This document shows, piece by piece, positions 9,628-47,088 of a stretch of DNA of 64,000 nt; position 1 is the first letter of the stretch; every line of letters starts with the position of its first letter. The notes under the pieces are model-generated. The model saw only the letters and a list, made by a program, of their open reading frames with translations. It was not told where the DNA came from and did no database searches. The position numbers and the translations under genes were made by a program. Origin of the DNA: Candidatus Methylomirabilota bacterium (lineage in GTDB: Bacteria > Methylomirabilota > Methylomirabilia > Methylomirabilales > 2-02-FULL-66-22); contig JACQVN010000009.1 in the NCBI GenBank assembly GCA_016209735.1, positions 30,381 through 94,380 of the forward strand, written 5' to 3'.

Positions 9628-11535
9628 TTGGCTGCTAAGCGCACGACCCTCATCCTGCTCGTCGTCTCGGGCACACTCTTCTTCACGCAACTGGGCGGGA
9701 CCGGCCTCTTTGACGCGGACGAGCCGGCCTACGCCCAGGCGGCGCGGGAGATGCTCGCACGCGGGGACTGGATCACGCCGACCTTCAACGGGGCCCCCCG
9801 CTTCGACAAGCCCGTCCTATTCTACTGGCTGATCATGGGAAGCTACGCGGGCTTCGGGGTGAGCGAGTTTGCCGTGCGCCTTTGGTCGGCGCTGGCCGGG
9901 ATGGCCCTGGTCCTGCTGACGGCCTGGGCGGCTCGGCGCTGGCTTCCGCCATCGGCGGACTTCTGGGCAGGCGTGGCCCTGGCCACCTGCTTTCTCACCG
10001 CGCTCCTGGCGCGGGCCGCGGTGACGGACATGCTCCTTGCCCTCTGCGTCACGGCAGCCATCCTGGCGGGAGTCGCGGCCCTGGAGGTGCCAGACCGCGC
10101 AGAGCGCATGGCGCACAGGGCACAGGGCACAGGGCATGGCGCACAGGGCATGGCGCACGGCGCAGAGCGCACGGCTTACGACGCACAGGGCACAGTGCTC
10201 GACGCACAGGGCACAGCGCTCGGCGCACAGCGCACGGCGCACGGTGCACAGCGCTCGGCGCGCGGCGCTGGAAGCTGGGCTCTCTTCGCCTGGGCCGCCA
10301 TGGCGTTGGCCGTCCTGGTGAAGGGCCCCATCGGTCTTGTGATCCCCGCGATCACCTTCGGCCTCTCCCTGCCGGCAACCCGGGAGGTCCGCTTCGGCCT
10401 CCGGCGGCTCGTCCCCTGGCAGGGTCTGTTGCTCTTCCTGTGTCTCACCTTGCCCTGGTACCTTCTGGTCCTCCGGGCCAACGGCTGGGCCTTCGTCGAG
10501 GGTTTCGTCATCAAGCACCATTTCACCAGGTACACGGGGGTGGTCTCCAGCCACGCGGGGCCGTTCTGGTTCTACCTTCCCGTGCTCCTGATCGGCTTCT
10601 TTCCGTGGAGCGGGTACCTGCCGTCGGCCGGCTGGCGGGCCTGGCAGATCCTGCGGCGGCGGAGGGCCGAGCGGCATGGAGATCGGTTGATCGTTGTCTG
10701 CGCCTGCTGGGCGGCGGCGGTGTTCGTCTTCTTCTCGCTGGCCGGGACCAAGCTTCCGAGCTACCTGTTCCCCGCCTTCCCCGCCCTCGCCCTGCTGGTT
10801 GCGGGGCTCGGAATTTCAAATGAAAAATGCAAAATGAAAAACCGGCCAACGGAACAGACGGTTGCCCGGTTTTCCATTCTCAATTTTTCGTTTTCCATTG
10901 ACCAGCCGCGCATCGACGCGCGCCTGGTTCGCCTGGCGCCGTGGCTCATCGGCGGCGTCGGCGCGGCGCTGGCCATCGGCTTCGCCCTGCTTCCGTGGAT
11001 CCTGGAATTGGCGCGACCGGCCGCCCGGGGGATCCTGGATGGAGTCGAGGCGCCCACCGCCCTGGCCTTCGGGCTGGCGGGGCTTCTGGGTGTGGGCACG
11101 ACTACAGGCCTTTGTGCGTCGGGCTGGCGGCGCCCGTCCATCCTGGCAGCCATGATGGTCGGAGTGATTCTGGCGGCCGCGCTGCTGGCGGCGCCCAAGG
11201 CGCATGCCATCTTGCAGGGTGCGCTCAGGGAGTTTAGCGACGATGCTCGCCGCCTGGTGCCGCCGGACGGCACGGTGGTCGCGTATGGACTGAATGCCCC
11301 AAGCATAGTATTCTACGCGGAACGCCGGGTTCTCCCGTTGGGGCCCGGCACCCCGGACGGTCTCGATCGGATCCAGCGCCTGCTCGCCGAAGGCCGGCCC
11401 ATCGTGGTCATCTCCCGCAGCGCGCACGCCCCGATCCTGGATCGCGTTCCCGGGCTGATTCGCGGGAAAGCCCGTAGCGGGTTCGCGATATATTGGCCTC
11501 GGGCGGCTAGTCAGATTTCCGCTGCCCCACGGTAA
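9628..11535 (+). CDS. GT39/ArnT-like (PMT_2) membrane glycosyltransferase with two in-frame repeat insertions
   Basis: N-terminal LFDADEPAYAQAAREM...GDWITPTFNG.PRFDKPVLFYWL is characteristic of ArnT/PMT-family enzymes, and the protein has many TM segments. At 635 aa it is about 85 aa longer than expected, matching the two inserts. Confidence 0.8.
   Translation: MAAKRTTLILLVVSGTLFFTQLGGTGLFDADEPAYAQAAREMLARGDWITPTFNGAPRFDKPVLFYWLIMGSYAGFGVSEFAVRLWSALAGMALVLLTAWAARRWLPPSADFWAGVALATCFLTALLARAAVTDMLLALCVTAAILAGVAALEVPDRAERMAHRAQGTGHGAQGMAHGAERTAYDAQGTVLDAQGTALGAQRTAHGAQRSARGAGSWALFAWAAMALAVLVKGPIGLVIPAITFGLSLPATREVRFGLRRLVPWQGLLLFLCLTLPWYLLVLRANGWAFVEGFVIKHHFTRYTGVVSSHAGPFWFYLPVLLIGFFPWSGYLPSAGWRAWQILRRRRAERHGDRLIVVCACWAAAVFVFFSLAGTKLPSYLFPAFPALALLVAGLGISNEKCKMKNRPTEQTVARFSILNFSFSIDQPRIDARLVRLAPWLIGGVGAALAIGFALLPWILELARPAARGILDGVEAPTALAFGLAGLLGVGTTTGLCASGWRRPSILAAMMVGVILAAALLAAPKAHAILQGALREFSDDARRLVPPDGTVVAYGLNAPSIVFYAERRVLPLGPGTPDGLDRIQRLLAEGRPIVVISRSAHAPILDRVPGLIRGKARSGFAIYWPRAASQISAAPR
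10096..10265 (+). repeat. (GCACAGSG)n-type array inside the ArnT-like CDS, in frame
   Basis: Encodes AHRAQGTGHGAQGMAHGAERTAYDAQGTVLDAQGTALGAQRTAHGAQRSARG. The units are the same as in the intergenic arrays at 3290-3372 and 34444-34650. Confidence 0.85.
10812..10900 (+). repeat. AT-rich AAATGCAAAA-type hairpin inside the ArnT-like CDS, in frame
   Basis: aaatgaaaaatgcaaaatgaaaaaccgg ... ccggttttccattctcaatttttcgttttccatt. Same family as 36141-36230 and 38596-38688. Confidence 0.85.
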
Positions 11536-27182: not shown

Positions 27183-28333
27183 AGGTGCGGGGCTATTTCT
27201 CCCGGAGGGCGGGCTTCGCTGCCGATCGCGTGACCCTGCCGTCGACCCCTCCGCCCACCGTGGAAGAGGCCCTCGGCAGCGGCGCGTTTCTCCTGGAGCA
27301 GGCCGGCATCGAGAGCGCTCGCCTGGATGCCGAGTGCCTGTTGGGGCATGCCCTCAGCCTGCCGCGCTGGAGGCTGGCCGCGGCCCCGCAGCGCCGCCTC
27401 AGCCCCGAGGCGTTCGTGGCCTACCTCAGCCTGCTGGAGCGGCGCGAGCGGCGGGAGCCCCTGGCCTACCTGGTGGGTGGGCGGGAGTTCTGGTCGTTGC
27501 CCCTGGCGGTGAGCCGGAATGTCCTGGTGCCGCGTCCGGAGACCGAAACCGTGGTGGAAGTCGCCCTGGCGGTCTGCTACGGGACAGACCCGCTGGGGCT
27601 CGAGCCGAGCGCCGAGCGCCGAGCGCCAAGCGCCAAGCGCCAAGCGCCGAGCGCCGAGCGCCGAGCGCCGGGGACCGGGGACGGCGGGCGGCCGTCACCC
27701 TCGAACCGCGAATCCCGCCTGGCGGCGGGATCTGCGTCCCGCCGAGGCGGGACTTCGACCGCGAACCTGGAACCTCGAACTTGGAACCTGAAACCTGAAA
27801 CCTCGAATCTCTTGATCGTGGACCTGTGCACGGGGAGCGGGGCCATCGCCATTGCCCTGGCCCGCGAGCTCCCCTCGGCCACGGTGCTGGCCTCCGATAT
27901 CTCCTGGCGGGCGCTCCGCGTGGCGCGCGCCAACGCCGCCGAGCAAGGGGTTGCGGAGCGGATCACGTTCCTGCGGGGGAGCGTCTGGCGGGCGGTGGCC
28001 GGGGCCCTGGGGGACCGGCAGGCAGACGTGGTGGCCGCCAATCCTCCCTACATTCCCAGCGGCCGGATCCCGGCCTTGATGCCCGAGGTGCGCTGGGAGC
28101 CGCGGCGGGCCCTGGACGGCGGCCCCGACGGCCTGGCGATCATCCGGGACATCGTGGCGGGGGCCCCGCAGCACCTCCGGCCGGGCGGCGTGCTGCTCCT
28201 GGAGGTCGGGGCAGATCAGGGGAACGCGGTCACCGCGATGCTGGGGATCGCGGGCGCGTTCGAGGCCTGGCGCGTCGTGCCGGACCTGGCAGGGCTTGAC
28301 CGCGTCGTCGTGGCGCGACGACGCGGCAAGTGA
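27179..28333 (+). CDS. prmC: Release-factor glutamine N5-methyltransferase PrmC, with a roughly 70-aa in-frame repeat insertion
   Basis: LAYL.GGREFW...L.V...VLVPRPETE, then the insertion, then [15 protein letters not shown] and ANPPY (NPPY motif). ATGA overlap with prfA. Confidence 0.85.
27601..27808 (+). repeat. Three repeat modules inside prmC: (GCCGAGC/GCCAAGC)n, a CCCGCC..GGCGGG hairpin, and (GAACCTSG)n
   Basis: Units identical to the intergenic families at 37551-37590, 3575-3615 and 13040-13148. Confidence 0.85.
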
Positions 28334-33825: not shown

Positions 33826-34422
33826 ATGGGCCGCTCCGCGAGTATCGTCCGGACCACCTCGGAAACCGACATTCGCATCCAGCTCGAGCTCGACGGCCGC
33901 GGAGAGCACCAGATCGCCACGGGCATCCCCTTCCTGGATCACATGCTGGCCCAGGTGGCGCGCCACGGCCGGTTCGACCTTCGGGTGCAGGCGGCCGGCG
34001 ATCTGCCCGTGGACCTGCACCACACCGTGGAGGACGTGGGGATCGCCCTGGGCGACGCCTTCACCTCTGCGCTGGGGGACAAGGCGGGCATCGTCCGCTA
34101 CGGCGCCGCGCGCGTTCCCATGGACGAGGCTTTGGCCGGCTGCGTCCTCGACCTGTCCGGCCGGCCCTACCTGGCGTTCCAGGCTCCCCAGATCCGGGGC
34201 GGCCGCATCGGGGGGTTCGACGCCGACCTGGTGCGGGAATTTTTTCAGGGGCTGACCAATCACCTGCGGGCCAACCTGCATCTCCAGGTAGAGTACGGGG
34301 GCAACCTCCACCACATGGTGGAGGCGGCCTTCAAGGCGCTGGGCCGGGCCCTGGACCAGGCCACCCGGCTGGATCCGCGGATGGAGGGGGTTGTTCCCTC
34401 TACCAAAGGGAGCCTCGGGTAA
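33826..34422 (+). CDS. hisB: Imidazoleglycerol-phosphate dehydratase
   Basis: R.T.ETDI...L.LDG......[23 protein letters not shown], and HHMVEA.FKA. Confidence 0.9.
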
Positions 34423-34531
34423 GGATTTGCGATTGCCGATTGGGGCACAGCGCAAAGCGCACGGAGCACAGCGCACAGCGCGCGGGGCACAGAGCACAGG
34501 GCAGCGATTACGGGGCAGCGAGCAGCTGGCA

Positions 34532-34562
34532 GGTGTAGGGGCGGCCCTGTGTGGCCGCCCGA
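34532..34562 (+). repeat. GTAG-REP hairpin, copy 6
   Basis: GGTGTAGGGGCGGCCCTGTGTGGCCGCCCGA. Confidence 0.8.
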
Positions 34563-34949
34563 CACCGGGCGCGGGGGACGGGGCAGCGGTTAGCTGGCAG
34601 CGGGTAGCGGGCACAGCGCACGGGGCACGGCGCACAGCGCACAGGGCATAGGGTAGCTGGCAGAAGTCAGGGGTCAGTAGTCAGCGGGCAGCGGGCGGTG
34701 GAGCGGGGGGAACGGACCATGGACCATGGATAGCAGGGCGCGTTGAACGTGGAACGTGGAACGTTGAACGTTTAACGTGCGAAGCAGGCCGTACCGTTCT
34801 TATCATGAGTGGGCGGGCATGAAGCCCACCCCTACGCAACCACAACCGATCACGGCCCACGGGAGTCGTCGTAGGGGAGGAGTGTATCCCCTCCCGACGG
34901 GTTGCGCGTTCATGGCGTAGGGATGTGGGTGGAAGCCGGCAGCGGGCCA

Positions 34950-34981
34950 GGTGTAGGGGCGGCCCCATGTGGCCGGCCCGG
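34950..34981 (+). repeat. GTAG-REP hairpin, copy 7
   Basis: GGTGTAGGGGCGGCCCCATGTGGCCGGCCCGG. Confidence 0.8.
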
Positions 34982-35267
34982 CACAGGGCACGGGGCAGCG
35001 GGCAGGAGGGCGAGCCGCAGCGAGATCCCGCCGGGAGGCGGGACAGCGGGCAGCCGGCAGGAAGGCAGGGGGCAATCGGGTAACCCATGATCCGAAGGCG
35101 GCGATGCGTAACGCGTAACACGTAACACGTGAAACGTGAAGCGGTAAAACGGGAAAGGCGGAGATACTGCCTGCGGTTATTCGTTCGCTGCCTGTTGCGA
35201 GCTGCCTGTTGCCTGCTGGAACGGATGCCCCTCTTGCGACTCTGGTTGTTTTCGTGCGAGGTATTTG

Positions 35268-35903
35268 ATGATCGCTATCATCGACTCGGGGATCGCCAAC
35301 CTGCGGAGCGTGGAGAAGGGCTTCGCCCGGCTGGGCGTACCGGCGGAGATCGTGGAGGCGCCCGAGCGTCTGGCGGAGGCTGCCGGGATCGTCCTCCCCG
35401 GCGTGGGGGCCTTCGCCGACGGGATCGCCAAGCTCCGCGGCCACGGCTTCATCGAGCCCCTCCAGCGCGCCATCGAAAAGGGGACGCCGGTCTTGGGAAT
35501 CTGCCTCGGCCTCCACTTCCTCTTCTCCGAGAGCGAGGAGTTCGGCCGGCACCGGGGCCTCGACCTACTGTCGGGACGGGTGCGTCGCTTCGGCGACGCC
35601 ATGCCCGACCCGCGCGTGCCGGCAGCGCGGCTCAAGGTGCCCCACATGGGCTGGAACCGGGTGCGGATCGAGCGAGACGCTCCCATTTTCCGGGGGCTGC
35701 CCGAGGAGCCGTTCTTTTACTTTGTTCACTCCTACTATGTCGAGCCGGCGGATCCGGAGGTCACGGCGGCGACCGCCGAGTACGGGCTGCGCTTCACCGC
35801 GGCGATCTGGCGGGACAACCTCTTCGCCACGCAGTTCCATCCGGAGAAGAGCCAGGCGCTGGGCCTCAAGCTGCTGGAGAACTTCGCGGCGCTGGCCCGG
35901 TAG
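35268..35903 (+). CDS. hisH: Imidazole glycerol phosphate synthase, glutamine amidotransferase subunit
   Basis: IAIIDSG.ANLRSV, LPGVGAF, GICLGLH (catalytic Cys), and QFHPEKS. Confidence 0.9.
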   Translation: MIAIIDSGIANLRSVEKGFARLGVPAEIVEAPERLAEAAGIVLPGVGAFADGIAKLRGHGFIEPLQRAIEKGTPVLGICLGLHFLFSESEEFGRHRGLDLLSGRVRRFGDAMPDPRVPAARLKVPHMGWNRVRIERDAPIFRGLPEEPFFYFVHSYYVEPADPEVTAATAEYGLRFTAAIWRDNLFATQFHPEKSQALGLKLLENFAALAR

Positions 35904-35947: not shown

Positions 35948-36023
35948 TCCCCTCACCCCAGCCCTCTCCCCCGCCCCGCCTCTGGCGGGGTACCCGGCGG
36001 GGAGAGGGAGAGAGGGTGAGGGG
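35948..36023. repeat. CCCCTCACCCC...CTCTCCCC-N-GGGGAGAG...GGGTGAGGGG palindromic repeat
   Basis: Inverted arms around gccccgcctctggcggggtacccggc. Confidence 0.65.
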
Positions 36024-36140
36024 CGAAGAACGAGCGGAAAGCTCCTTGGGGCACACTATTTTACTGGGCCACGGGAATCCGGCGATTCGGCAATTCGCCC
36101 GGGCCCGAGGGAACCGGTTCATCGCTTCGGATCGTGGCAA

Positions 36141-36230
36141 TGTAAAATTGAGAATGCAAAATGGAAAACCGGCCAACGGAGGCCGGCCATTGGACGGTTT
36201 TGAATTGTCAGTTTTACCTTTTGCATTTCG
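36141..36230. repeat. AAATGCAAAA-type AT-rich hairpin
   Basis: tgtaaaattgagaatgcaaaatggaaaaccggcc ... ggccattggacggttttgaattgtcagttttaccttttgcatt. Confidence 0.75.
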
Positions 36231-36422: not shown

Positions 36423-37148
36423 ATGGAGATCATCCCGGCGATCGATGTCAGGGGTGGGCGGGTTGTTCGCCTCGTGCAGGGCGATCCCGCCCGGGAAACC
36501 CGCTACGGCGATGACGCGGCGGCCGCGGCTTGCGAGTGGGAGCGGCGCGGGGCCAGGCGGCTCCACGTGGTGGACCTGGACGGGGCCTTGGCCGGGGCGC
36601 CGGCGAATCGCCAGGCCGTGCGGGCCATCCTGGCGTCGGTGCAGATTCCCATCCAGGTCGGCGGCGGCCTGCGCAGTCTCGAGGCAGTACGGGATCTTCT
36701 GGGATCGGGCGTGACGACGGCTGTCCTGGGAACGGCGGCAATACGGGACCCCGCATTTCTGGCGGCGGCCTGCGCCGCCTTTCCGGGGCGGGTCGCCCTG
36801 GGGCTGGACGCCCGTGCCGGCATCGTGGCCGTGTCGGGCTGGGCCGAGACAACCTCCGTCCTGGCGGCCGACCTGGCGCGGCAGGCCAGCGGGCTTCCCC
36901 TGGCGGCCATCATCTATACCGACATCAGCCGCGACGGCATGCTCTCGGGGCCGGACCTGGACGGGCTCCGTGCCATCGCGGAGGCGGCCCGGCTCCCGGT
37001 CATCGCCTCCGGCGGAATCGCTTCCGCGGCAGACATTGCCGCGCTCCGCAGCCTGGTGCCCTTGGGGCTCCGCGGGGCTATCATCGGCAAGGCCCTGTAC
37101 GACGGCCGCCTGAGTCTGGAGGCGGCGCTGGCGGCGGGAGGGGGCTGA
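36423..37148 (+). CDS. hisA: 1-(5-phosphoribosyl)-5-[(5-phosphoribosylamino)methylideneamino]imidazole-4-carboxamide isomerase
   Basis: [31 protein letters not shown], and ASGGI. Confidence 0.9.
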
Positions 37149-37972
37149 TGCTGGCCAAGCGAATCATTCCGTGTCTGGATGTGAAGGATGGCCGGGTGGT
37201 GAAGGGTACTCGCTTCGTGAACCTGCGGGATGCGGGCGACCCGGTCGAGGTGGCGGCGCTCTACGATGCGCAGGGGGCCGACGAGCTGGTCTTCCTGGAC
37301 ATCACGGCCTCCCACGAGCGCCGCCGGATCATGATCGACGTAGTCGCGCGGACGGCCGACCAGGCTTTCATGCCCCTCACGGTGGGGGGCGGGATTCGCT
37401 CCCTGGAGGACATCCGGGATCTCCTGAAGGCCGGCGCCGACAAGGTGTCGCTGAACACGGCGGCGGTGGAGCAGCGGGAGCTGATCCGACGGGCCGCCGA
37501 GCGGTTCGGCAGCCAGTGCATCGTTCTGGCCATCGACGCCAAGCGGCGCGGAGAGCCGAGAGCCGAGCGCCGAGCGCCGAGCGCCGGGGAGGAGTCTCGG
37601 CGCCCGGTGCCCGGTGCCCGGTGCTCGTGGGAGGTGTTCGTTCACGGGGGGCGGACGCCCACGGGAAAGGATGCCGTGGCCTGGGCCGTGGAAGGGGAGC
37701 GGTTCGGCGCGGGGGAGATCCTCCTGACCAGCATGGATCGGGACGGGACCAAGAGCGGATACGACCTGGATCTCACCCGTGCCATTGCCGAGGCCGTGGG
37801 CATTCCCGTGATCGCCTCGGGCGGGGCGGGGACGCTGGCCCACCTCTACGACGGCCTGACGGCAGGCAAGGCGGACGCGGCGCTGGCGGCATCTATGTTC
37901 CACTATCGCGAGGTCACGGTCGCGGAGGTGAAGCGGTATCTGGCAGAACGCGGCGTGCCGGTGAGGCTCTGA
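37148..37972 (+). CDS. hisF: Imidazole glycerol phosphate synthase cyclase subunit, with a roughly 25-aa in-frame repeat insertion
   Basis: [54 protein letters not shown], and IASGGAG. ATGA-type overlap with hisA. Confidence 0.9.
37551..37627 (+). repeat. (GCCGAGM)4 plus (GCCCGGT)3 heptamers inside hisF
   Basis: gagagccgagagccgagcgccgagcgccgagcgccgg...cgcccggtgcccggtgcccggtgctcg. Encodes [24 protein letters not shown]. Confidence 0.85.
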
Positions 37973-37983
37973 CCACGGACGGC

Positions 37984-38089
37984 AGACCATGGACCATGGA
38001 CGATGGACCATGGACGGGGGACCGCGGACCATGGGACCCGCGGTTAATCCGATGTGCTCCTATGGTCCATCGTCCATGGTCCATGGTCG
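37984..38089. repeat. Long hairpin whose arms are (GGACCAT)n tandem repeats
   Basis: 37984-38013 (agaccatggaccatggacgatggaccatgg) matches the reverse complement of 38060-38089 at 28 of 30 positions. The loop is about 46 nt. It lies directly after the hisF stop. Confidence 0.85.
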
Positions 38090-38110: not shown

Positions 38111-38593
38111 ATGGAATTCCAGGCGGTGAAGATCGAGACTCCGGAGGGGGCCAACGTCATCCTGGGGCACAGCCACTTCATCAAGACCGTCGAGGACCTT
38201 TACGAGATCCTTGTCACCACGCTGCCCGGGGGCAAGTTCGGCCTGGCTTTTTCCGAGGCCTCGAGTCCCTGTCTCATCCGATCTGCGGGAAACGACGAGA
38301 CCCTGCGCGAAGTCGCGGTGCGCAACACCCAAGCGGTTGCGGCAGGCCACTTCTTCGCGGTGGTTCTCAAGCAGGCCTTCCCCATCAACGTGCTGAACGC
38401 TCTCAAACAGTGTCAGGAGGTCTGCAGTATCTTCTGTGCATCGGCCAATCCGGTGGAGGTCATCGTGGCGGTCACGTCCCAGGGACGGGGGGTCATGGGG
38501 GTGGTGGACGGCTTCCCGCCGAAGGGGGCAGAGTCCCCCGCGGATGTCGCGGCTCGGAAGGAGTTCTTGCGGAAGATCGGATACAAGATGTAA
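38111..38593 (+). CDS. Adenosine-specific kinase family protein (PF04008-like)
   Basis: GHSHFIKTVEDLYE, FGLAFSEAS.P.LIR..GND, AFPINVLNALK, NPVEVIV...QGRGVMGVVDG, and FLRKIGYKM match the archaeal/bacterial PF04008 pattern as I recall it. Confidence 0.7.
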   Translation: MEFQAVKIETPEGANVILGHSHFIKTVEDLYEILVTTLPGGKFGLAFSEASSPCLIRSAGNDETLREVAVRNTQAVAAGHFFAVVLKQAFPINVLNALKQCQEVCSIFCASANPVEVIVAVTSQGRGVMGVVDGFPPKGAESPADVAARKEFLRKIGYKM

Positions 38594-38708: not shown

Positions 38709-39440
38709 ATGGAGAGCGCTGTGAGCGTACAACTGTCGGAGGTGCTCAAGTATGACGCGAATGGGCTCATCCCGGCCATTGCCCAGGATGCGGAGAATGG
38801 GGACGTCTTGATGCATGCCTACATGAACGCCGAAGCGGTCGCGCGCACGCTGGAGACCGGCCTGGCGCATTACTACAGCCGGTCCCGCGGCCGCATCTGG
38901 CGCAAGGGGGAGGAGTCAGGCCACGTGCAGCGCATCCGGGAAATCCGCTACGACTGCGATGCGGACACGCTCCTCCTCCGCGTGGACCAGGAGGTCGCCG
39001 CCTGCCACACCGGAAACCGCTCGTGCTTCTACCGATCGCTCGGCTCGGAGAGGCGCGACGGGACCGGGCCGGCGGACCGGCGTTTCGATCCCGCGGAGGT
39101 CTATCGCGGCCTCGGCATCCTGGCGAGCCTCTTCGCCGTCATCGAGGAGCGCCGCCGGGAGCGGCCGGCCGGATCCTACGTGGCCTCGCTCTTCGCCAAA
39201 GGCGGGGATCAGGTCATGAAAAAGGTGGCGGAAGAAGCCGCCGAGGTGCTGCTGGCGGCAAAAGGCGGGGATCGGACGCAGGTGGTTTACGAGATGGCAG
39301 ACCTCTGGTTTCACTGCCTGGTCCTCCTGGCGCAACACGGCATTCGCCCGGAGGAGATTGCCGGCGAGCTGGGCCACCGCTACGGAAAGCAGAAGGCGGA
39401 CTACGGAGGACCACCGCCTCGGGATGAGACCGGCCACTGA
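38709..39440 (+). CDS. hisIE: Bifunctional phosphoribosyl-AMP cyclohydrolase / phosphoribosyl-ATP pyrophosphatase
   Basis: GLIPAIAQD...G.VLM.AYMN, YYSRSR...W.KGE.SG, DCD.D.LL..V.....ACHTG..SCF, then the HisE part SY...L...G.D.V.KK..EEA.E. Confidence 0.9.
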
Positions 39441-46984: not shown

Positions 46985-47069
46985 ACCAAGGACCAAGGAC
47001 CAAGGACCAAGGACCAAGAACAGGGGCACCTTCGGGTCCGTCTCCATTGGGATTTGGTCATTGGTCATT
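46985..47069. repeat. (CAAGGAC)n and (TTGGTCA)n heptamers after the rpoD stop, forming an imperfect foldback
   Basis: caaggaccaaggaccaaggaccaaggaccaag ... gatttggtcattggtcattg. Confidence 0.7.
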
Positions 47070-47088
47070 GAGAATTCGCACAGCGATT

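Follow-up and report, generated by a model that had tools for sequence, protein, structure and literature searches.

Two arrays of seven-nucleotide units inside the hisF gene of this genome probably form a translated and tolerated heptamer foldback island, which belongs to a genome-wide repeat class and whose units slip under purifying selection for the HisF reading frame. The two tracts are the arms of one island of tandem 7-nt units, which lies in frame after the AIDAK strand and is predicted to be read as a disordered surface loop of about 24 residues. Heptamer (and octamer) arrays would fill the intergenic spacers of NC10/Methylomirabilota, whereas within genes only permissive loops and linkers would let them survive, and there they could persist only with units that are stop-free in any frame and with a total length divisible by three. 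The arrays may lengthen and shorten by unit slippage, and the complementarity of the arms is probably maintained or renewed by intrastrand template switching. Out-of-frame variants would be removed by purifying selection on HisF, so that relatives would mostly differ by three units at a time (21 nt, or 7 residues), by changes that compensate one another or by turnover of the entire island. As such, slippage appears to happen and to be able to break hisF, and it resembles a mutational burden that selection purges more than an adaptive switch of phase. The preliminary description of this DNA had noticed two separate heptamer tracts; their pairing as one hairpin and the genome-wide and clade-wide extent of the repeat class go beyond it.

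The island in hisF and its protein

The window is the whole stretch of DNA analysed, 64,000 nt in length (1-64000). Gene calling by codon usage places about 52 genes in it, every one on the + strand. Within it, hisF is a single-copy housekeeping enzyme gene in an intact his operon (Table 1). Its product matches TIGR00735 over the full length with 391 bits against a curated cut-off of 294.55 and has the (beta/alpha)8 barrel fold in the AlphaFold2 model, the two features by which membership of HisF was judged, and it aligns with the PDB structure HisF-LUCA 4evz at E=3e-105. Close homologues carry the names Candidatus Methylomirabilis, candidate division NC10 or Methylomirabilales, and the genome is assigned to NC10/Methylomirabilota on this ground. 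The operon spacers hisB-hisH (840 nt; 34445-35218) and hisH-hisA (520 nt; 35950-36168) are both crowded with diverse heptamer arrays, including GCACAGC, GGGCAGC, GGACCAT, CGTGGAA, CGTAACA and TGCCTGT.

Table 1. Coordinates of the hisF island, the his operon and related repeats in the window.
Feature	Position	Strand	Basis
prmC island: (GCCGAGC/GCCAAGC)x9.6, GCCGAGCGCCGGGGA junction as in hisF, then (GAACCTG)x6.4	27604-27807	+	TRF, sequence, Pfam
hisB (his operon)	33826-34422		Pfam
hisH (his operon)	35265-35903		Pfam
hisA (his operon; overlaps the hisF start)	36423-37148	+	Pfam
hisF CDS, imidazole glycerol phosphate synthase cyclase subunit (275 codons plus stop)	37148-37972	+	Open translation, TIGR00735
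5' arm: six heptamer units GCGGAGA GCCGAGA GCCGAGC x3 GCCGGGG, 13 residues encoded	37548-37589	+	Direct reading, TRF
24-codon in-frame insert (residues 137-160), also the core stem-loop	37556-37627	+	4evz alignment, AF2 model, fold
Hairpin apical loop AGGAG	37590-37594	+	RNA fold
3' arm: TCTCGGCGC, then GCCCGGT x3.3 (lineage-specific array)	37595-37624	+	Direct reading, TRF, fold
Intergenic hairpin of the same class, just 3' of the hisF stop: (GGACCAT)n opposite (ATGGTCC)n	37984-38089	+	TRF 37985-38034 and 38062-38088, sequence
PF04008 gene (his operon)	38111-38593		Pfam
hisIE (his operon)	38709-39440		Pfam

Direct reading and Tandem Repeats Finder (TRF) both find the heptamer tracts where they had first been noticed, in a repeat block flanked by AIDAKRR and SWEVFVHGG inside an uninterrupted frame. 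TRF delimits the 5' array at 37546-37586 (period 7, 5.9 copies, 91% matches) and the 3' array at 37598-37624 (period 7, 3.9 copies, 95% matches). The 5' units read directly are followed by AGGAG and then by TCTCGGCGC (37595-37603), the reverse complement of GCGCCGAGA. Positions 37602-37624 are GCCCGGT x3 plus GC, and together with TCTCGGCGC they read TCTCGGCGC-CCGGTGC-CCGGTGC-CCGGTGC. The tracts are short and impure, with no perfect run longer than 3 units on the 5' side or 3.3 units on the 3' side. The earlier view that copy numbers preserve the frame needs one correction: the 72-nt total length of the insert preserves it, whereas the 28 + 21 nt of the single arrays are not a multiple of three.

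In a fold of 37536-37640 both arrays pair as one hairpin, a single long stem in which 5' units face 3' units with one mismatch per unit. The TCTCGGCGC segment is exactly complementary to the 5' unit, and GCCCGGT pairs with GCCGAGC at 6 of 7 positions when G-U is counted. The fold energy of this segment is -63.4 kcal/mol, compared with -52.8 +/- 3.8 for shuffles (z=-2.77). Searches for terminator-like sites, promoter-like sites and Rfam families in the hisF island returned none.

In the protein, residues 2-136 align to residues 1-135 of 4evz and residues 161-275 to 137-251. The 24 insert residues stand for one residue of the reference HisF, right after the AIDAK strand, in the turn after strand beta-5. 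The equivalent strand of T. maritima HisF bears the catalytic Asp130. An AlphaFold2 model, for which 63 aligned sequences were used, has high overall confidence (mean pLDDT 87, pTM 0.87) and agrees with solved HisF structures at TM 0.92-0.94; it renders residues 135-161 as coil at a pLDDT of about 48-51, between strands 126-134 and 162-166. The insert is accordingly predicted by the model to be a disordered surface loop, and we infer that it is actually translated and that the loop is neutral for catalysis.

Heptamer arrays across the genome

The source assembly comprises 1.69 Mb in 62 contigs, is 69% complete and has 66.4% G+C; gene calling by codon usage gave 1411 genes and 79% coding sequence. 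Exact arrays of at least three copies number 52 for heptamers, 4 for hexamers and 11 for pentamers over the whole genome, and exact heptamer arrays number 0 in three Markov-1 simulated genomes, so that the heptamer count far exceeds what chance would give. TRF finds 487 period-7 and 270 period-8 arrays genome-wide, with 176 canonical heptamer units. By place, 359 of the 487 heptamer arrays are intergenic (74%), 51 lie at gene edges and 77 inside genes. The arrays are therefore tandem, over-represented genome-wide and mainly intergenic, the features by which bacterial heptanucleotide long simple-sequence repeats are recognised. Units are stop-free on both strands in 90% of genic arrays compared to 64% of intergenic ones. 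A TRF-detectable inverted partner lies within 150 nt of only 19% of heptamer arrays, and the foldback form is thus a subset of the heptamer class.

In-frame islands also occur in linkers or loops of other genes identified by Pfam, namely those for an E2 acyltransferase, PrmC, a PMT-type glycosyltransferase, a histidine kinase and a Cu P-type ATPase. There are 14 GCCGAG[ACG] arrays in G000, of which 7 touch genes, all 7 in sense orientation; the genes with sense arrays include hisF, prmC and those for the E2 acyltransferase and the Cu-ATPase. The GCCGAGC unit family had been said to be common to hisF and prmC, and it does recur at 27604-27670, as the GCCGAGC-unit part of the prmC island, which keeps the reading frame and separates PrmC_N from the methyltransferase domain.

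Several further observations concern this repeat class. The hisF (37583-37592) and prmC (27667-27676) islands both have a GCCGAGC-GCCGGGGA junction that extends past the repeat unit, so the two may share an origin or one may have been copied from the other. A (GCGCACG)x23.6 array of 165 nt (10104-10268) lies in frame in the PMT-type glycosyltransferase gene (9628-11535), whose Pfam match covers residues 25-153 only, upstream of the array. In addition, arrays of TTGGTCA (47054-47070), the cyanobacterial STRR2 unit, and of ACCAAGG (46985-47018) are found in this non-cyanobacterial genome of 66% G+C.

Length and content of the loop among relatives

A hisF gene is present in 62 of the 66 genomes of the order, and in all 62 the loop is read through in one open frame with no stop. 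The 55 loops that were extracted range from 21 to 171 nt, in keeping with the earlier suggestion that the site is permissive and length-variable. Families f5 and f6 have loops of 21-24 nt (KRAGVGW, KARPGGGW) and no island, and families f1, f2, f4 and f7 mostly have loops of 60-171 nt with a clear period of 7 and lineage-specific heptamer arms. The arrays are usually inverted pairs: GCCGAGA/TCTCGGC in f1, GTTCACA/TGTCAAC in f2, GTTCAGG/TGAACCA and AAGTCCG/CGGACNT in f4, and GTTTCGA/TCGAAAC and GTTCCAG/GGAACTC in f7. Some lineages (G040, G060) have a single arm, and non-complementary arms occur in f4 (CAGAGTC/CCTCAGC).

The content of the loop is also patchy at short range. Some f7 genomes lack an island, with empty 30-nt loops in G056 and G053 compared with a 93-nt (CCCCCAA)5 island in G052, and island types differ between near-identical genomes (G033 versus G036, G025 versus G029). 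A maximum-likelihood tree built from the HisF flanks nests f5 and f6, the families with no insert, within a clade that also holds f2, f4 and f7, and several events would be required under either a single ancient insertion or repeated gains. From these comparisons the HisF loop appears to be occupied order-wide, by lineage-specific heptamer hairpins in most of the 62 genomes, with a content that turns over fast. Outside NC10, heptamer hairpins occur in the same loop in Omnitrophota L050 and in metagenome contigs L121, L123, L132 and L191, among the matches listed.

Two side observations bear on hisF in public assemblies. The hisF gene of G037 is split at the loop over two contigs (C29:43-444 and C40:4718-5206), and short-read assembly seems to fail at the repeat island. 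Furthermore, tblastn matches span 1050-1150 nt instead of the usual ~760 at the hisF loci L061, L102, L104, L105, L113 and L115 (Binatia, Peptococcaceae, Gammaproteobacteria), which seem to bear inserts of ~300-390 nt.

Close relatives also differ in copy number. The 5' GCCGAGM array has 2 units in L211 (loop of 81 nt), 5 in L010 (102 nt) and 11 in L020 (144 nt), while the spacer and 3' arm are identical across the series; about 17 units may be inferred for P0048, known as protein only, from its loop of 62 residues. All of these copy numbers (2, 5, 11 and ~17) are 2 mod 3, which corresponds to steps of three units or 21 nt. Loop lengths among 120 homologues form the series 27/34/48/62, 22/29/36/43 and 26/33/40 residues. 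When pairs with flanks at least 92% identical and loops of different length are compared, the difference is a multiple of 7 residues in 232 of 701, where about 1 in 7 would be expected; the pairs are relatives and non-independent, and the enrichment is therefore descriptive and carries no test statistic. The nearest relatives, L209 and L210, have the 5' array and the TCTCGGC turn and lack the GCCCGGT array, which can thus be read as a recent local amplification. Taken together, the sequence comparisons indicate that heptamer arrays in the hisF loop slip, as a slippage-prone tract was expected to do, and that loop length varies between relatives mostly in 21-nt steps.

In-situ slippage alone hardly explains patchy island types and empty beside filled sites, so that replacement, recombination or insertion must also act, and slippage in place is only part of the story. 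A possible but doubtful extension is that a dedicated process common to several uncultured phyla (NC10, Omnitrophota) makes and spreads heptamer arrays, repeatedly seeding and rewriting foldback islands at the same permissive housekeeping loops such as that of HisF. Candidates for it could be a template-switching or nick-and-extend activity in 7-nt register, or a protein each of whose subunits binds a single heptamer. If true, such a process would be a natural loop-insertion mutagenesis, with hisF as a convenient marker locus.

It is unlikely that a discrete mobile element, MITE- or RPE-like, inserts repeatedly at a hot spot here instead of a microsatellite having grown in place. The differing island types in near-identical relatives and the empty f7 sites beside filled ones would suit such an element, as would the recurrence of unit types at many loci per genome (80-155 arm matches in G012 and G013, up to 155 in G013), the GCCGAGCGCCGGGGA junction common to hisF and prmC, and the sense orientation of all seven genic GCCGAGM arrays. 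However, no second full-length island (arms plus spacer) was found in G000, G051, G012 or G013, where arm units only recur, and a discrete transposable copy was rejected on this ground. Moreover, the f7 comparison of filled and empty loops, one site pair, revealed no evident target-site duplication, length varies by whole units within an otherwise constant island, and unit types intergrade (GTCCAGA, GTCCAAA and GTCCGAA in f4).

Selection for the hairpin itself, as RNA or DNA, is distinctly improbable. The structure would then serve mRNA stability or processing, a translational pause, protein binding or replication, and the peptide would be a by-product. The arms are indeed complementary in many lineages despite differing unit sequences, the window hairpin is more stable than its shuffles, and similar hairpins stand after stop codons and in operon spacers. 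However, in 31 of 41 islands the more stable fold is that of the antisense strand and not that of the mRNA strand (mean -46.0 versus -40.5 kcal/mol), which argues against a selected mRNA structure and led to the rejection of mRNA-hairpin selection. In addition, the arms are very unequal, with 2 to 11 units on the 5' side (17 inferred from one protein) facing a constant 3' arm; one-armed, non-complementary and island-free lineages exist (the last being f5, f6 and some f7); and the island matches no terminator-like site or Rfam family. Translated and tolerated repeat DNA remains the more probable reading of the hisF island.

Frame loss and comparison with known repeat systems

A repeat unit that is not divisible by three, present in frame as two 7-nt arrays, raises the question of out-of-frame alleles, and a check for such alleles at low frequency had been proposed. 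Because an initial protein search scored the full-length sequence and so disfavoured broken genes, it was repeated with residues 1-134 only. In this search the HisF frame is lost after the loop in 4 of the 120 best clusters, and among the species genomes 0 of 62 are out of frame at the loop. One of the four shifted alleles is a unit-sized change and the other three look like sequencing errors.

The first of these is the environmental contig L238 (JGI 3300057025, contig Ga0568893_0425039, 1.1 kb). It shares 96% identity with L240, which is in frame, and the two genes differ in whole length by exactly one heptamer, L238 being the shorter. Where L240 reads GCCGAGG GCCCAGG GCTGCGA GCCGAGG, L238 reads GCCGAGG GCCCAGG GCCGAGG, and the 7-nt loss splits hisF into 171 + 94 residues. 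Synonymous and non-synonymous differences between them stand at 6:4 upstream and 8:6 downstream of the shift, and the similar ratio on both sides suggests that the shift is recent. On sequence evidence, one putative unit-sized knock-out allele therefore appears at a rate of roughly 1 in 120 clusters.

The remaining alleles (P0122, P0152 and P0162) come from ENA 'contig_N' assemblies and share a recurrent change of GCCGAGA to GCCGACGA. They were ruled out as evidence of slippage on account of several 1-2-nt indels in the island and of broken hisA or hisH genes nearby, and they look like long-read indel errors. The contigs L236 and L237 (ENA ERZ25039554 and ERZ25039519) have the identical 1-nt insertion, GCCGAGA to GCCGACGA, in heptamer arrays, together with other 1-2-nt indels and broken neighbouring his genes. 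The change is probably a systematic long-read base-calling error at such repeats, and such an error could mimic frameshifts in public MAGs. A chimeric query joining the N-terminal half to both out-of-frame tails found no frameshift product at E<=0.001, a weak negative since tails so rich in G and R have few exact words in common with those of relatives.

These data bear on the suggestion that the tract acts as a phase-variable on/off switch. Contingency loci of host-adapted bacteria combine long, pure tracts with OFF alleles that are frequent among sequenced genomes, and they serve in surface structures or modification. Neisseria pglE is a 7-nt case, and Haemophilus influenzae hmw1A/hmw2A reportedly have phase-variable 7-nt promoter repeats. 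As an adaptive contingency locus, hisF would be toggled at high frequency by the gain or loss of single units, and part of the population would become auxotrophic for histidine, for instance as cheaters within a syntrophic consortium. The likeness to contingency loci lies in a non-triplet repeat unit in or near a gene whose slippage can switch it: a 7-nt unit shifts the frame, copy number changes between relatives (2/5/11 units), and L238 is a unit-sized out-of-frame allele that looks recent. In contrast, the hisF tracts are short and impure, and out-of-frame alleles are rare among relatives (OFF in 0/62 genomes and, by unit-sized change, in about 1/120 cluster representatives ranked blind to the C-terminal half), the other three shifted alleles having scattered indels and broken neighbours; length steps are enriched for multiples of 7 residues, hisF is a single-copy core biosynthesis gene, and the same repeat class occurs in many other housekeeping genes where switching would be senseless. 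An adaptive switch is thus very unlikely, and we favour an island whose slipped variants are purged by selection on HisF.

Among known systems, the cyanobacterial STRR/HEP heptanucleotide arrays are said to have been described by Mazel et al. in 1990 and Elhai et al. in 2008. Heptanucleotide repeats have also been reported in Xanthomonas and Nostoc (GGGAATC/GGGGAYT; PMC4692102) and in Beggiatoaceae (TAACTGA; PMC4679880). The present arrays resemble such bacterial repeats in their tandem 7-nt units, their strong over-representation throughout the genome, their mainly intergenic position close to the ends of genes and their variable copy number. However, the known genomes have one or a few dominant units, whereas 176 canonical units coexist here. 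Furthermore, the known repeats are reported as under-represented in coding sequence and not described as translated paired inverted arrays, whereas the present islands lie in frame in conserved proteins.

Rickettsia palindromic elements (RPEs) are inserted into protein-coding genes without disturbing the frame (Ogata et al. 2000, reviewed in PMC10969869). As that review presents them, they too are in-frame hairpin repeat DNA in unrelated housekeeping genes, with a fold-compatible extra peptide and also intergenic copies. In the fold, the alignment and the predicted structure, the hisF island is likewise an in-frame hairpin-forming insert in a surface loop of a conserved protein. In that same account, RPEs form dispersed consensus families of ~150 bp with a conserved peptide, whereas the hisF island has no conserved full-length element, and no second full-length copy was found in G000, G051, G012 or G013, the arm units alone recurring. 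Also unlike RPEs, so far as they are characterised there, the island has tandem 7-nt arms, varies in unit and copy number between close relatives, and occupies the same site across the order and in other phyla. A full-text literature search found no paper on heptamer foldbacks in Methylomirabilis/NC10 genomes.

To summarise, the case shows the fate of frame-shifting 7-base microsatellites inside an essential enzyme gene. The gene would survive because only 21-base or compensated changes are kept, and the cost shows in a rare allele that the change of one unit has broken. Throughout the order and in other phyla the HisF loop holds such arrays, with units that differ in near-identical relatives, and hisF could thus be a simple, universal locus at which to measure the origin, spread and turnover of heptamer repeats. 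Moreover, a position in the HisF barrel that tolerates 20-57 extra residues would be useful for protein engineering.
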